Shown: positions 42,001 through 48,000 of the stretch, piece after piece | How positions within the stretch are numbered: the stretch's first letter is position 1 | Layout of the letters: every line of letters starts with the position of its first letter | From: Longimicrobiales bacterium | Lineage (GTDB): Bacteria; Gemmatimonadota; Gemmatimonadetes; Longimicrobiales; Gaopeijiaceae | Assembly (NCBI GenBank): GCA_965248195.1 | Contig: CBDFIQ010000001.1 | Span: forward strand, 1,344,001-1,408,000 | DNA: 64,000 nt | Direction of reading: 5' to 3' | Made by a program: the position numbers

Positions 42001-45000
42001 TGGTGATCAAAGTGAACCGGCTGCTGAGGTTCTGACTGAGGCTTCTTCAGCCCGTCTCACCAGGGACTGGCCCGCGCCATTGCTGTTGCAGTGTGGCGAC
42101 TGGAGCCGCCCCGCAGCTTCATCCACGCCCCCCACGAGGGGGGGGCGACCAATACGAGCAACAAGGCCATCACCAAGGCACCGTTTCAATCCACGCCCCC
42201 CACTAGGGGGGCGACTACTGCGTACACGCCTACTTCTCCAGCACCGTAACCCCATCAGGAATCCGGCTACCGTCCAGACTCACGTCGTAGTCGGCGTAGG
42301 ACCGAGGCACGTCAACGCCCTCCCGCTTCTGGATGATCAAGGCCTCGAACAGCTGGTGGGACGGCGCATTACCCAACGCGTCATCGTGCTCGAACACGAG
42401 GAGACGCCATTTGGCCATACTGCCTGGTGGACGGGCAGCCGACTGATCGAACTGGAACGCTCTATCGAGGGCCTGCCAGACCAGCTCGAGGTCCTCCTCG
42501 TCAAACCCCGTCTGATCCGCCAGGAAAGGATTCACGAAGCCGTGCGCCCGGTAGATGGCGTAAGGTACCGTGAACTTGCGGCCCATCGTCCGCTCCTTCT
42601 CCAAGTCCTTCACATTCGTCACGGAGCTACGCGTGATCGCATGCTCACTAGTTACGATCGGGTCGATCGACCGGGCGAAGGAAAGCTGAACCGGCCCACG
42701 GACCTGCCCACAGTTCACCTCAGTGCTCATCACTGCGCCAAACGTGCGGATGTCAAAGAAGTTGTGGCACATGAAGTCGGTGAGTGCCTGCGCCTTCTTC
42801 TGGTCCTTGGGGAGTCTCCTGGAGACCGGCTTCTCCCCAACGTGTTCGTATGCACGCTCATGGGTGTTGTTGAGCACGGCCTTGTCGGTGAAGTAGATCT
42901 CATGCCGCGGCTCGCTCGTTTTCGTGAGCGCCACGAAGTTACGAATCTTCCGCTTGAGGCAAACGTCGGTCACCAGTCCCTGCCCGGTCTCCGCGTCGAT
43001 GCGGGGGAGGTTCCCGGCATCGGGGTCCCCATTGGGGTTGGCATCGGTTACGTCGAACACGAAAATGAAGTCGTAGCGCTTCATGCGGCTGAGTTTGCTT
43101 CCGAGTTTTCGTTGCTCCTTCGCTTTGTGTAGAGAGCTCTCGTCTGGTGGTAGTACCCGAGGGCAAACAGGCCCTGTTCGTTGAGATTGAAATGAGCCGG
43201 AAAGCCATCGAGAGGATCGAGCACTTCCTGAAGGAGTCGCTCTCGGTTTGTTCGATGACCCCCATCCAGCTTCGCTAGATGGTGCTGGTAGGTGCGTAGC
43301 AAACGTGGGAAGACCGTACGGGGCATCGCCGCCGCCGAGCTGTAATAGCTGCCTCGGATCGTGTTGTTCAGCTTTCGGCCCAGGGCGTCCTTTTGAGTCT
43401 TCTCGATGGCCGCGAACGCTCGACCGAGCCGATACGCCGGGCTGGTGTTCTCCAAGTCCAGGCTCATACTCACCTCCTGGTGTTTGTTGCGGACGAGGTA
43501 CCCCTTGAGGACACAGGCACGGGGGTAATTGATCAAACGGTCGGTGTGGATTCGTCGAACTACGGCGCTGAACAGGCCCTGGGGATACGGGACGCCCTGA
43601 AGCACGGCCCGAAGGAGTGGGCCGGCAAGAACCGGAGGGATCTTCTCTCGGTCCGGCTTGCCCTGCTTGGTCGGACAGGTCTGGTCCAACAACATGCCGT
43701 ACGACGGAAATTCCGGATCCGCCCGTCGTTTTCCAGAAGCGGGCTGGGGCTCTGTGCCGCTATCATCGTGATGCTTCTTGAGGTTGTCGAGGAGATCGCG
43801 CACTGTACCCTGATGAAAGGACCGCACCGATATGCGAGCCGCATTCGGTGCGAGTCCCAACAGATAAAAGCCGGTTCTATCGGGGTCCTCATCGAGGGCT
43901 CCGTACCCACGTCCCGAGCGTAGAGCCCTCAAGAACATCTCGAACCTCGACTTCATGGCCTCGTCCTGAACGTCGCCGCCACTCGAACCGCGGCGGAGGT
44001 ATTGCGCGAGGCAATCCTCGACGGCACTCGGCTTGTCCGTCCAGAACACCACCGTGGTGGCTCCGAGTTGGATGCGGTGCTTGTCCCGCATCGGGCCTTC
44101 GAGAAGGGCGTTGAGGCCCGTGGCATACCGGAAAGCAGCTGATTCGGAGACGGGTGCGTTGTGGCTCTGCGTTTTGCCGAAGGACTCGTAAGCCCCTTCG
44201 TTGAACGAGACGAGGGTGGCGCCTGCGGACTGTGCGCCCGCTACGCCCTTGATCTTCGGGGAATGCGTCTTGGCCACCGGGCCGTATTCACCGGTAACGA
44301 GGCACTGGGCCTCAAAGTCCTCGGACCTTTCCTTCGTGTGGCTGGCCCACCAGGCTCTTACTTCCGGCACGTCATGGACGTAGCCGAGGTCGCCTTGGAT
44401 CTGGAAAACGCCGAACCCGGTGTTGGTGTGCTCCAGCACCGGAAACTGAGCAACGACATCATGGCCCGCAGCGGGATTCCAGTTGGTCAAGAAAGCACAC
44501 ACCGCAGAAAAAGTCGGCGCGTCGATCTCGGTATTCAGTCGGAGGTGCCGATCCCGAAACCCTTCGAAGGCTCTTAGCGCACGGGCACGCTTCTTGGGAT
44601 CGGCATCGTACCCCAGGAGGTAGGCCGTGTTGTCCCAGAGGAAACCGGGGTTGATTCCCGATCCGGAAGACTTCGCCTGCCCGGGCACGAGGACGCGTTG
44701 GGGGCGGAGCTTGCCCGCTTCGTTCTGCCGCGCGTCCTGAATGTCGAAGAGAGTCCCGTCGGGCCGCAGGACGATCTTGAAAGTGATCTTCTGCACGCTG
44801 TGGCCGAATGGAGGGATTTTGTAAGTGGTATCTTCGCTCAAACGATCATAGAGCGCGACCAGTGACTGTAGGATCATGGCTCAGGCCCTGGCGCTCTCGA
44901 GCGCCGGGACGTCGAGCACACCGTCCTGCAATATCGCTCGGAAAAATCGCGGCTGAGCTGTCACCCGCCGTCCCTGACTGGACTCGATGACGGCACCTTT

Positions 45001-48000
45001 TGGATCCGGAATGAAAAGGTGATCGTGGAACAGGAACCCCAGATCCTTTGCGCCCCTCAACTCCGTGGGACACCCAGGAAACGAATCAAGGAGCTCAAAG
45101 CTCGCAGGGAACTCCCTGCACCCCAGGTAGGGGTGATGGAAGTACTGTCCCTTCCTGCCACGTCGCTTGAAGGTGTCCAGGTGCTTGGCCTCGGGGTTCG
45201 TTGTCCCAGCCTCCCCCTTGTCCGTCAGCTCCACGTGTGCCTGGATTCCGTAGGACACGTCCCGAAGTAGCAGGGCGGCTCTCTGCTGGCGGTGTTCGTC
45301 AACGGCCATGCCCAATCGCCCAGCACCAGCTTTCATTGCCGCCTCGACGCCAGACTTGCCCCGCATGGGGATCTTCGCGTCGATCTCGTTTCGCCGAATC
45401 TGCGTGCGCCGGATGGGAGCCAACACATGAATCCGGTCAACGACCCACCGCATTTCCGGTTTCCAGTAGATCGCCTCGAGAATGCCACGTGCCGCGCTGG
45501 GGGTCAGGATGTCGTAGGAAACCCGCTCCACTTTCATTTCAGGGCGGTTGAACGAAGCCAGATCCCCCCAAACCCTCAATCGCACGCCATAGGCCATACT
45601 GGACCCCATTCCCTCATCATCCCCACCACCCCGTCGTCACATGGTCGCCCGCACGTGGTCTCCTCCCGTCGCCGCGGTGGGGCCGCTTACGAGGGGATAC
45701 CTACTAAGACGTAGGGAAGGACGGGAAAGTTGCAGGAACGGGTCGAGGAGGGGCGGCTGCGGCGCGCCCGGCTAGAGGATGCTAGTCCCTCAGCTTAGTG
45801 CGGGAGCAGGCGGGATCGGGGACCTAGAGGCTCTACTTCACAGGAATTGCTGCAGTCGTGGCCAACAGGTCGTAGAGGATGGACATCTGGCAGTTCATTA
45901 CCCTCTGAACGTAATGGGGACTTCGATCCATACGGCAACCGGCTCGGTTCCGTTCATAGCCGGGGTGAACCGCAAAACGTCCGCGACCCTGAGGGCAGCT
46001 TCGTCCAACTGCGCCCGGCCTGAAGTCCGGGAAACTCTCGCGTCCCCGACCACGCCGTCGTCGGAAATGAAGAACCAAACCCTCACCGTCCCACCGATTC
46101 CGGCATCCCGAAGCGCAGCGGGATACTCCCGCATCAGGGCTGCCTGGACCTCTTCCCGGTTTGTGATCTCCGGCCGGACGGTCATAGGTGTGAACACAGG
46201 ACCCGCCTGGACTGCCGCCGCGTCTCGCGACTCCACCTGAAGTGGCTCGGGGCTTGTCGTGGGCGCCGACTGACTCGCTGGCGGCTCGACCTCGACGATT
46301 GGCGGGTCCGCTTCTCCCGCCACCGGACTCGTCGGGGGGGCCATGGGCGGATCCACAGCACACGAAGCCACCACGAGCAGTGCTGCGAGCAGTGTCAGTC
46401 CGACGGTACGCGTGTACCGGGGGTCGCGAGTGTCGGTCATGGCAAGGATCCTCTGTTCGATCGATGGGATCGGGCGAGCGAAAGCCAGCGCGCTCAACCG
46501 TGAGGCCGTGCCTCGAGCGCCGATCTCAACAAGAAGCCTGGCGTACCGCTTCACGTCCGCCAATCGGTTAAGGACGCGATGGTCACAGTCGATCTCGATG
46601 GCCAGGCGAAGCCGGTGAACCTGCCACCAGAGAGGGAGGTTCCACGGAAGGAGCGTCAGAAGAAGAAGAGAGAGGCCTGCCAGGCGCGTATCGCCCGCGT
46701 TACAGTGCTCCCCTTCGTGCTGGAGCATCAACTCTTGCTCCCGCGGTGGCATGCCAAACGCCCAGCGCGGCATCACGATCACCGATCGGATCCATCCCAC
46801 GACGCCGGGGCCGAGGTCTTCCGAAACCAGAACGTCCCGGCCATGGAGTTCCGACGGCGTCCAAGTGGACCGGTCCGACCGAAGCCGCAGGTGGGCCCGC
46901 AGGAGGACCGCGGCAACCGCAAGAGTCAGCACCACCCAGCCTGCACCGAGCAGCGTGTCGAGGCCAATGCCGGAGGGTGACGCATCCGCCAACCGCGTAA
47001 TGGAGCCGACGACGGGGATCAGAAGAGCGTCGAGTGGAGTGGAGACGACCGTGCCAAGTGGGAGCGCAGAGGCCGGCGGACGTAGGATCGCGACGAGCGT
47101 ATAGCCGAACGACCCGGCCATCGCTCCAGCCCAGATCCAACGCGTGGGAAAAGCGAACACCCGAACGGCGCGTTCGAAGGCCCACGCCGCTAGTCCCAGA
47201 AGAAGGCTCACGCTCATCACATAGACCATCAGGCTCAATAGCATCAGTCTTCCTCCCCTTCCGAGCCCTCACCCAGACGCTCGTCGACGAGTTGGCGCAG
47301 CCGGTGGAGTTCCCGTTCGTCCATGCCACGGTCGGAAACGAGTTGGACCAGGAGCAACTCTGGCGAGCCCTTGAATACCTTCTTCACGAGCCGCCGTAGC
47401 TCCCGCCGGCCTGCCGCCGTCCAGTCCACGAGAGCGTAGTAACGGTAGGCCCGCCCCTCCGCCTCATGCCGCACATACCCCTTCTCCCTGAGCGTCCTCA
47501 GCACGGAGAGCACCGTCGTGTAGGCGAGGGGATCGCCCAATCGCTCCTGGACCTCTGCGACCGTTGCGGAGTCCAGATCCCAGAGGATGGACATCACGTC
47601 CAGTTCGCGGGGTGTGAAGGTGTCCGGCGGCATGATCCTACCCTTGTTACGGGAATTCTAGTAGCAACATGGGGATTGCCTCCGTCCCTGTCAACTAGAA
47701 AACCCGTAGATGGATTCTCAACACACATCGATTACCACGCAGAAATCCCCAGCCTCATCGCCGCTGTGGAGACCCACCCGGATGCGCCCTACAGTTCCAT
47801 GATAGAAGTGCTGGATGCGCTCCACTCCGCAAACGCCGAGCGTATCTCGCTCCAGATGCTGGAGAACTAGGGGAGGCGCGATCAGAGGCGGCGGCATTTT
47901 CGAGGCTGAATGCTAGCATCCCCCGCTCGTTTGAAGGAAATCCAGCCGTAACTGCGTACATTCAGGTATGCCTGCCCCTGTTATTTCGGTCTCTCATCTG

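Follow-up and report, generated by a model that had tools for sequence, protein, structure and literature searches.

A Cas3-less type I-C Cascade locus with a single guide matching SusC-type genes: natural silencing device or scar of self-attack?

Introduction

In the 'autoimmunity' view, self-targeting spacers go with degraded CRISPR loci; class 1 systems also have regulatory mini-arrays, of which CreA/CreR is one kind. Canonical type I-C systems (Dvulg; Nitratidesulfovibrio vulgaris, Neisseria lactamica) combine the gene order cas5c-cas8c-cas7 with a 33-nt repeat containing a GC hairpin and a ATTGAAAC tail, a TTC PAM, and no cas6. The locus described here, from a Longimicrobiales bacterium, shares these features, and its Cas8c has 39% identity to the plasmid-borne one of N. 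vulgaris, but it is without cas3, cas4, cas1, cas2 and a leader, and its single spacer matches host genes.

In type I-C systems the TTC PAM lies on the 5' side of the protospacer, read on the strand that has the same sequence as the spacer (PMC10865793). Deletion of cas3 makes a type I Cascade a repressor, and natural regulation is raised as a possibility in the available portions of PMC4288209; natural regulation of host genes by type I CRISPR has been an open question since that demonstration. In the engineered cas3-deletion CRISPRi systems (E. coli I-E, PMC4288209; N. gonorrhoeae I-C, with a TTC PAM, PMC10865793), a Cas3-less Cascade with a short array binds DNA and represses. The present locus has the same components, as known from its sequence, but it is natural, its guide match is partial (17 nt contiguous), and its guide base-pairs to the template strand within an ORF, a choice that both reports avoid in the portions available.

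Regulatory mini-arrays and cr-like RNAs of class 1 systems (Shmakov et al., PMC10120712), as far as the accessible text describes them, also consist of an intact upstream and a degraded downstream repeat with a partial PAM-proximal match to a host site, but they are parts of complete loci that also have a main array, and are aimed at a cas or toxin promoter. The mini-array here, unlike those, is the sole array, carries a full-length spacer, and matches within a SusC coding region. An incomplete Cas3-less I-C system with a Cas8-Cas5 fusion has been proposed as a DNA binder (Altae-Tran et al., PMC10910872); no gene fusion is present here, and the part of that report at hand describes no self-matching guide. 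Degraded loci with self-targeting spacers resemble this one in joining a chromosome-matching spacer to cas gene loss, whereas the Cascade genes here are intact and constrained and the mismatches are PAM-distal, outside the PAM and seed.

Either the locus silences genes as a natural device, or it is a scar left by an earlier self-attack. As a natural test case it is clean: the three genes are intact, no nuclease is present, and a single guide has a single predicted binding site. Several close strains share this layout, and some of them, having lost the system, could serve as natural controls. If it is only a scar, it documents a self- or kin-matching spacer going together with Cas3 loss and shows how long Cascade genes outlast the rest of a system.

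A Cascade operon running into a single-spacer array

The window is the 64,000-nt stretch at positions 1,344,001 to 1,408,000 of contig CBDFIQ010000001.1 (GenBank assembly GCA_965248195.1), and coordinates given without a contig name refer to it. The features of the locus and its upstream neighbors are as follows.

47633..47244, minus strand: blaI, upstream neighbor on the same strand as the cas genes
47244..45898, minus strand: gene for a BlaR1-M56/TonB-C protein, upstream neighbor on the same strand as the cas genes
45598..45897, minus strand: intergenic stretch from the blaR1/TonB stop to cas5c, the site of cas3 in relatives
44881..45597, minus strand: cas5c, 238 aa from the ATG at 45597; TIGR01876, 153 bits (cut-off 85)
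43081..44877, minus strand: cas8c/csd1, 598 aa; TIGR01863, 475.2 bits (cut-off 218.65), profile positions 1-586 of 588
42230..43084, minus strand: cas7/csd2, 284 aa; TIGR02589, 356.4 bits (cut-off 182.25), profile positions 1-283 of 284
42216..42229, minus strand: linker from the cas7 stop to repeat 1, 14 nt
42183..42215, minus strand: repeat 1, intact type I-C repeat of 33 nt ending in ATTGAAAC, which gives the 5' handle of the predicted guide
42150..42182, minus strand: single spacer, 33 nt; its in-frame reading GALVMALLLVL is a signal-peptide core
42116..42149, minus strand: degenerate terminal repeat, with the hairpin and the bases just past the stem kept and the handle part gone

Cas5c, Cas8c (Csd1) and Cas7 (Csd2) are encoded together and full-length, and all three score above the NCBIfam type I-C cut-offs, in agreement with the initial annotation of a bare cas5c-cas8c-cas7 operon at 42116-45609; all three genes are intact. 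The cas7 gene overlaps the cas8c stop by 4 nt. An in-frame ATG further upstream of cas5c, at 45609, would give a protein of 242 aa; 14 of the 15 close Cas5c variants listed have a MAYGV start. The 300-nt stretch upstream of cas5c contains no sigma-70-type promoter match, and a search of it for a cas3 remnant gave noise-level matches only. The blaI and BlaR1-M56/TonB-C genes are a possible source of read-through transcription into the cas operon.

Sequence reading and folding likewise confirmed the mini-array that had been reported 14 nt past cas7: a canonical I-C repeat comes first, then the 33-nt spacer, then a degenerate repeat in which the hairpin survives; the same 8-bp hairpin is predicted to fold in both repeats. 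Repeat 1 has the GC hairpin and 3' ATTGAAAC of type I-C repeats, and the two repeats are 66-68 nt apart, against a type I-C spacing of ∼66 nt. Repeat 1 is 2 nt away from its counterpart in L023, the closest relative, and 2-11 nt away from those in 13 relatives, whose arrays are spaced at 63-69 nt; its match to Rfam CRISPR-DR9 scores 29.4 bits, under the gathering score of 45. Neither a second copy of the repeat nor a further CRISPR array was found in the genome.

Missing cas genes

Whole-genome searches returned no matches to Cas1 (PF01867), Cas2 (PF09827) or Cas4 (PF01930). Across 4.86 Mb nothing exceeded the cut-off for cas3_core, whose weak matches (26.4 and 22.7 bits) are RecG and Mfd, or for cas3_HD, whose weak matches (31 and 27.9 bits) are HDIG proteins. 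The claimed lack of cas3, cas1 and cas2, extended here to cas4, is given as 'not found' because the genome is 91.8% complete. The locus is accordingly described as having neither the Cas3 helicase-nuclease that is the signature of type I nor an adaptation module of cas4-cas1-cas2 and leader; between cas7 and repeat 1 there are only 14 nt.

These features point to a deletion derivative of a normal type I-C system, Cas3-less and adaptation-less and with a processable single guide. One flank would have lost cas3 and the other cas4-cas1-cas2, the leader and every spacer except one, leaving cas5c-cas8c-cas7 running straight into the repeat, spacer and terminal repeat. The 14-nt linker marks the deletion junction. 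Some 6-7 nt of it are weakly similar to the start of cas4 in relatives (ATGTAC/ATGTAT), and there is a similarly weak, loose likeness of ∼6-7 nt, at a different spacing, to the TTAC motif near leader ends; neither is strong enough to decide between an origin from a cas4 start and one from a leader end.

Transcription of the cas operon would read through into the mini-array, where Cas5c would cleave at the base of both hairpins, and Cascade would assemble on one fixed guide in which the 33-nt spacer is flanked by an 11-nt handle and a 3' hairpin. Such a Cascade could bind but not cut DNA because there is no Cas3. A Cas3-less Cascade, short fixed arrays and possible guide matches to the chromosome also characterize Tn7-like CRISPR-associated transposons and type IV systems, but Pfam scans of the neighboring genes (window 20 kb to 64 kb) found no tnsA/B/C, tniQ, DinG, integrase or plasmid genes within about 20 kb. 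A CAST or other mobile-element reading was rejected, there being no transposase, integrase, plasmid or phage genes around the locus and the plasmid and phage relatives of Cas8c being at most 39% identical.

Matches of the spacer

The spacer matches four host sites, all on the coding strand at +39 from the ATG of SusC-type ORFs. Three of them, C2:641335 (6 mismatches), C2:635280 (7) and C1:294634 (8), are preceded by GGGTTC and thus have a TTC PAM, and C1:1422885 (8 mismatches) has CTG in place of TTC. The initial annotation had given 6, 7, 8 and 9 mismatches at +39; the position and the first three counts hold, and the fourth gene, g01325, has 8 and not 9. The next-best matches in the genome have 11 mismatches, and 120 shuffled spacers gave a mean of 0.05-0.07 matches at ≤8 mismatches versus the 4 observed. 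At C2:635280 we confirmed the TTC PAM and the perfect 17-nt PAM-proximal match claimed for g02011: the mismatches number 0/17 in the PAM-proximal part and 7/16 in the PAM-distal part, and this is the sole site in the genome that has TTC and no seed mismatch at positions 1-5 and 7-11. Cascade is predicted to occupy this site, +39 to +71 of the ORF, and would partly damp that gene.

The spacer corresponds to the signal-peptide region, at the 5' end, of SusC (TonB-dependent receptor) genes that form a genus-wide family. SusC genes of another species of the genus (G006) match it at 29 of 33 positions, that is with 4 mismatches, and with TTC. That the spacer is aimed at the host's own genes, as proposed earlier, is not established because these genes match better, although the matches to four host genes with 6-8 mismatches do exist. 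The strand with which the guide pairs inside the ORF is the template, a weak orientation for a roadblock; in type I CRISPRi, according to the available portions of PMC4288209, such pairing represses only near the polymerase footprint.

A foreign protospacer was sought and rejected: viral contigs gave 0 matches (with a pattern ignoring every sixth base), all phage and plasmid blastn matches had E ≥0.3, and 200 same-family genomes contained no match at ≤3 mismatches. The locus might still act in interference. Cascade could recruit a nuclease whose gene lies outside the locus, be it an unrelated enzyme or a cas3 from the 8% of the genome that is unassembled, or it could block incoming DNA by binding, and DNA of related Gemmatimonadota with better-matching SusC genes would then be a candidate target. 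The incompleteness of the genome, the G006 matches and the fact that another Cascade-only locus (L058) sits in a genome with cas3 elsewhere speak for such a function; we judge it improbable given the cas3 core and HD searches, the one fixed spacer without adaptation genes, and a spacer with no phage, plasmid or viral-contig match.

The arrangement of intact repeat, spacer and degraded repeat is that of class 1 regulatory mini-arrays as portrayed in the portions of PMC10120712 available, and would suit a CreR/CreA-type guide that represses its own cas promoter or a linked toxin. However, no TTC-type PAM with at least 8/10 seed matches occurs on either strand of window 45501-48100, and no PAM-plus-seed site was found near the cas or blaI upstream regions; the locus is not a complete one with a normal array, there is no Cas3 needing a safeguard, and no gene resembling a small toxin was seen next to the array. 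We rejected CreR-like autoregulation as a candidate and regard it as scarcely credible.

Relatives of the locus

In a sample of 401 genomes of the phylum, this genome (G000) is the only Cas3-less one among 11 that carry Cas8c, and cas3 is adjacent in 10/10 of the others. More widely, among loci with enough flank, cas3 and cas5 are neighbors in 33/35 from genomes and in all 25 from metagenomes. Cas8c was not found in any of 11 same-genus genomes, which bears out the distribution on which a 'recent arrival' had been proposed; the arrival itself is not established. What is established is that the Cas3-less state is unique among the 11 Cas8c-bearing genomes of the phylum sample. Synteny with two same-genus genomes is confined to blaI-blaR1, and the context of that pair there is on the other contig of G000; no clean insertion boundary could be drawn from an empty-site comparison with these two. 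L058, from a Magnetococcales MAG, was rejected as a further example: its locus has Cascade genes alone, yet cas3 is elsewhere in its genome, and no spacer has a self-match better than E 0.25.

Constraint and decay of the Cascade proteins

Conserved columns were defined as those at least 95% conserved across 46-57 relatives. The three proteins keep 214/215 of them (Cas5c 54/54, Cas8c 77/78, Cas7 83/83), and the branch length is 1.01, compared with 0.99 for a complete sister system. Among close variants (at least 95% identical), 4 of 63 variable sites (21 per protein) fall on conserved columns versus 13.6 expected (P ∼8e-4), a test that takes all these variants as Cas3-less, as seen for two runs only. 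Other variants are broken. In the 90% cluster of Cas8c, 4/9 variants are disrupted; three have a common foreign C-terminus, one of these being also cut at the N-terminus, and the fourth is frameshifted 8 codons ahead of the stop. One of the 15 Cas5 variants listed is truncated, and one of the 15 Cas7 variants listed is fused to an unrelated N-terminus.

The locus could be an inert remnant, in which a SusC spacer was taken from its own or a close lineage, self-targeting or plain decay favored loss of cas3 and the adaptation genes, and the Cascade genes and last spacer are as yet uneroded, binding without a selected role. The long-standing view tying self-targeting spacers to degraded loci, as cited in the available part of PMC4288209, favors this, as do the singular Cas3-less state of G000, the regular adjacency of cas3 to cas5 elsewhere, several independent disruptions among close variants, the 6-8 mismatches to host genes beside a better match in another species, and the weak strand orientation. 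Against it, conserved columns are intact and shunned by substitutions, the branch is not accelerated, the layout persists over ∼2% nucleotide divergence, and one target has a perfect PAM and seed. Escape from self-attack usually alters the PAM or seed. With evidence on both sides, we consider the remnant quite possible, though slightly less so than the binder described next.

Sequence evidence suggests, tentatively, that the locus may quite possibly work as a nuclease-free guided DNA binder that damps a SusC gene and is kept under constraint. The intact genes and array, the conserved columns and their avoidance by substitutions, the normal branch length, the recurrent layout, the PAM-plus-seed site and the PAM-distal position of its mismatches favor such a binder; the broken Cas8c, Cas5 and Cas7 variants, the better G006 match, the template-strand pairing and the lack of a sigma-70-type promoter match upstream of cas5c count against it. 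Its DNA-binding activity would be the reason for the constraint on the three cas genes in several strains, with the locus dispensable and being lost in others. An incomplete Cas3-less I-C system was likewise put forward as a DNA binder in the available portion of PMC10910872. That the locus is a domesticated Cascade, selected as a one-guide repressor of a SusC TonB-dependent transporter gene and thus a natural CRISPRi on a cellular gene, seems unlikely; if it were so, the repressed gene could act as a nutrient-uptake switch or a phage-receptor switch. The initial annotation had offered a regulatory binder or a self-targeting system that survived by Cas3 loss. The derived Cas3-less Cascade and its one site with PAM and perfect seed stand, but neither of the two readings is singled out, and the G006 match, the broken variants and the template-strand pairing count against or qualify the interpretation.

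Contigs from other sequencing runs

The exact sequence of a spurious ORF across the array, used in an attempt to see the arrays of close strains, is absent from the protein collection. One listed orthologue of the target gene, 91% identical, has the family-consensus signal peptide and is too distant to bear on close strains. The same Cas3-less layout was found on ∼98% identical contigs from other sequencing runs. A 4037-nt contig of run X8 carries DUF5916, the array and all three cas genes (cas7, cas8c, cas5c); it has 85 differences and leaves no space for a second spacer unit. On a contig of run X7, which reaches from cas5c across the intergenic stretch into blaR1, the extra letters number only 139. 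A structural polymorphism was observed at 45605/45606 in other runs.

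A type I-C Cascade operon is followed by a one-spacer mini-array

The locus lies entirely on the minus strand of the window and consists of the following features:

45597..44881, minus strand: cas5c (full-length NCBIfam type I-C match, 153 bits)
44877..43081, minus strand: cas8c (full-length NCBIfam type I-C match, 475.2 bits)
43084..42230, minus strand: cas7 (full-length NCBIfam type I-C match, 356.4 bits)
42215..42183, minus strand: repeat 1 (33 nt, I-C hairpin plus ATTGAAAC tail)
42182..42150, minus strand: spacer (33 nt, between the two repeats)
42149..42116, minus strand: repeat 2 (tail lost; retains the 8-bp hairpin and the bases directly following its stem)

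The three protein matches are far over their cut-offs, and repeat 1 begins 14 nt past the cas7 stop, which bears out the cas5c-cas8c-cas7 operon, 14-nt gap and one-spacer mini-array of the initial annotation; its end coordinate, 45609, corresponds to an alternative in-frame ATG upstream of the cas5c start. Repeat 1 is 2 nt away from the repeat in the closest relative's array and 4–11 nt away from those of 12 others, and it is matched by Rfam CRISPR-DR9 at a score under the gathering score. Cas5c cleaves at the 3' base of the repeat hairpin, and a guide requires the tail of the upstream repeat together with the hairpin of the downstream one. Because both are present, the mini-array would in principle be a processable guide unit.

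Cas3 and the adaptation genes are not found in the host genome

The 4.86-Mb genome, in two contigs and 91.8% complete, yielded no Cas1, Cas2 or Cas4 in six-frame family searches. For Cas3, the type I signature, the same searches returned only cas3_core matches of 26.4 and 22.7 bits and cas3_HD matches of 31 and 27.9 bits; these four were rejected, being named by NCBIfam as RecG, Mfd and two HDIG-domain proteins. No cas3 remnant was detected in the 300 nt separating blaR1/TonB from cas5c, and no transposon, integrase, plasmid or phage genes occur within about 20 kb. A second copy of the repeat was not found elsewhere in the genome at ≤9 mismatches, and a k-mer scan for other arrays picked up coding tandem repeats only. 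At this completeness cas1, cas2, cas3 and any other array, which the initial annotation also missed, count as not found, and a cas3 may still lie in the missing part. One array-like region, C2:45446-46653, was discarded as coding: its gene carries 72-nt (24-aa) leucine-rich repeats that mimic an array in k-mer scans.

The spacer matches the start of SusC-type genes

Four non-self matches to the spacer at ≤8 mismatches were found in the host genome, the next best having 11, whereas spacers shuffled by base (60) or by codon (60) gave a mean of 0.05–0.07. All four lie on the coding strand at +39 from the ATG of SusC-type genes of about 1060 aa with CarboxypepD_reg, Plug and beta-barrel domains:

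C2:641335: 6 mismatches, PAM TTC
C2:635280: 7 mismatches, first 17 nt perfect, PAM TTC
C1:294634: 8 mismatches, PAM TTC; gene broken into ORFs of 195 and 749 aa
C1:1422885: 8 mismatches (9 in the initial annotation), PAM CTG

The genes are paralogous and their 5' region is conserved, so the matches count as one event. Read in frame, the spacer encodes GALVMALLLVL, part of the signal-peptide segment of the SusC family. TTC with a perfect seed (positions 1–5 and 7–11) occurs only at C2:635280 in the whole genome, where the mismatches are all PAM-distal (0/17, then 7/16).

Orthologues in other species of the genus fit the spacer as well as or better than the host's own genes. Two genes of one species (G006) have 4 mismatches with TTC; a third gene of that species and genes of G005 and G010 have 6, and the counts are 7 for G009 and 9 for G007. 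No match at ≤3 mismatches was found in 200 family genomes, and none in phage, plasmid or viral collections. Hence the spacer derives from a SusC gene of this genus, either the host's own or that of a close lineage. The SusC matches at +39, the TTC PAM and the 17-nt perfect match proposed earlier were all recovered, but the spacer does not appear to be specifically aimed at this host, as G006 fits better. Interference, through a nuclease acting in trans or by binding alone, is an improbable role for the locus.

Three SusC paralogues (L061:5160-5420, L061:11230-11480 and L062, which is C1:294527-294755) are 85–88% identical over a 5' region made up of about 100 nt upstream and the first 80 coding nt. 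An N-terminal piece of a SusC protein, 247 aa long, is encoded at L061:10248-10991.

The Cas3-less layout is derived

Cas8c-based loci with Cas8c 41–63% identical were collected from species genomes (37) and metagenomes (33) and scored in tblastn searches whose queries were the seven Cas proteins from L023, the closest relative. A cas3 match adjoined cas5 in 33 of the 37 genome loci; two of the other four have no upstream flank, and two (L036 and L058) have at least 9 kb. Among metagenome loci 25 of 33 had a cas3 match, and all eight without one have <550 nt of flank. In a phylum sample of 401 genomes, Cas8c was present in 11, and all 10 others carry a cas3_core match beside it on the same contig (nine over cut-off, one at 92 bits). 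Cas8c was not detected in any of 11 same-genus genomes; the tally additionally contains one weak match, in an unpublished genome, that was left unused. Because cas3 adjoins Cas8c or cas5 in nearly all relatives with enough flank, the Cas3-less state is derived and, in the samples examined, peculiar to this species. We conclude that the locus genuinely descends by deletion from a type I-C system.

One candidate parallel, L058:9273-13150 from a Magnetococcales MAG, was rejected. Its cas5-cas8c-cas7 genes are followed, 3 nt past the cas7 stop, by about seven degenerate repeats whose hairpins all differ and whose GCGCGGATTGAAAC tails are conserved, then by an AAA_13 gene, with no cas3 or cas4/1/2 in the 9 kb before the locus or the 3 kb after it. 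Its genome has cas3 on another contig, no self-match was found for its spacers, and its Cas branch is roughly double the length of its sister's.

Two other loci are incomplete in different ways. L036:9579-16390, a Planctomycetota I-C locus with cas4-cas1-cas2 and a 21-repeat array, has no cas3 match in 9.5 kb upstream and none over cut-off in its genome; its cas5 match spans residues 80–239 only. L030:6872-14176 (Persicirhabdus sediminis) has cas3-cas5-cas8c-cas7 without a cas4 or cas1 match and with cas2 reduced to a fragment ahead of an 8-repeat array; it lost adaptation genes but retained cas3.

Sequence constraint and strain variation

Columns at least 95% conserved among 46–57 relatives are kept at 54/54, 77/78 and 83/83 positions in the cas5c, cas8c and cas7 proteins, and in a concatenated tree the window branch measures 1.01 against 0.99 for the complete sister L023. 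The 90%-identity protein clusters have 22, 9 and 17 members. Among variants at least 95% identical, 4 of 63 variable sites fall on conserved columns versus 13.6 expected (P about 8e-4), after removal of dense runs of differences and of eight distant or broken rows (P0002, P0008, P0012, P0018, P0020, P0021, P0028 and P0033).

Near-identical copies occur in public sequencing data: seventeen runs from seven studies contain 45–100% of sampled words, and four (X1, X4, X7 and X8) were compared with the window. X1 is identical to the window and is probably the source sample; pieces from X4, a sediment metagenome, are about 99% identical. In X8, a 4037-nt contig that spans 41273-45286 and shows 85 differences plus 27 gap letters has the window's DUF5916-array-cas7-cas8c-cas5c layout and no space for a further 66-nt unit; among the X8 contigs listed, none bridges 45286-45629. 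The window is structurally polymorphic at 45605-45606, 8 nt upstream of the cas5c start. The X1 contig stops at 45606, and an X7 contig spanning 44148-46628, from cas5c to blaR1, leaves 139 letters unaligned at 45605/45606; a cas3 would need far more.

Broken variants also occur. Three of the nine Cas8c variants (P0018, P0020 and P0021) share a foreign C-terminus after residue ~534, not found in the host genome in any frame, and one of these has a cut N-terminus as well; in a fourth variant a frameshift falls 8 codons ahead of the stop. Among 15 listed Cas5 variants one is truncated, and among 15 Cas7 variants one carries a fused fragment of an unrelated membrane protein. Assembly errors may account for some of these breaks, but not for the shared Cas8c C-terminus. 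We tentatively favor, at somewhat short of even confidence, a binder that lacks a nuclease but still works, its one plausible site lying where a SusC gene begins. That the locus is an inert remnant is a serious possibility; PMC4288209 cites the opposing view, in which self-targeting drives the system to inactivation.

P0036, a Cas7 cluster member, comes from a 2.5-kb contig in which a 99%-identical cas7 lies in frame behind 110 residues that resemble the tail of an efflux-pump membrane protein. Either the strain has probably lost cas5 and cas8c, or the contig is a chimaera.

Predicted effect of binding and relation to known systems

According to PMC10865793, the type I-C PAM is found on the 5' side of the protospacer, on the spacer-identical strand, so that in the SusC gene the guide would pair with the template strand. 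The same study describes a preference for guides that bind the non-template strand in ORFs. Strong repression by Cascade at the SusC site is not predicted.

Transposon-borne Cascades and type IV systems are likewise nuclease-free, but the present locus lacks the transposon genes of CRISPR-associated transposons. It resembles the incomplete I-C system without Cas3 for which PMC10910872 proposes a DNA-binding role, and also the regulatory mini-arrays that PMC10120712 places in 7% of 1206 I-C loci. Self-regulation by the mini-array is nevertheless very improbable, and the locus differs from CreR/CreA in having no main array and no promoter target. It fits none of these kinds (nuclease-free Cascades, the Cas3-less I-C binder, regulatory mini-arrays) fully. 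Within the accessible portions of the literature searched, we found no account of a natural Cas3-less I-C Cascade with one guide matching a host transporter gene; the supplementary mini-array lists of PMC10120712 could bear on this.

The neighborhood of the locus

The blaI-blaR1/TonB pair (window 45895-47714) is 83–87% identical to genes of two same-genus genomes, where it is flanked by sequences that the host carries at C2:2.694-2.703 Mb. Because these lie on the host's other contig, the pair has moved, perhaps with the cas cassette. The convergent neighbor (window 39555-42035) encodes a DUF5916/CBM9-like protein of 826 aa, a family with 7–39 matches per genome in five same-genus genomes.
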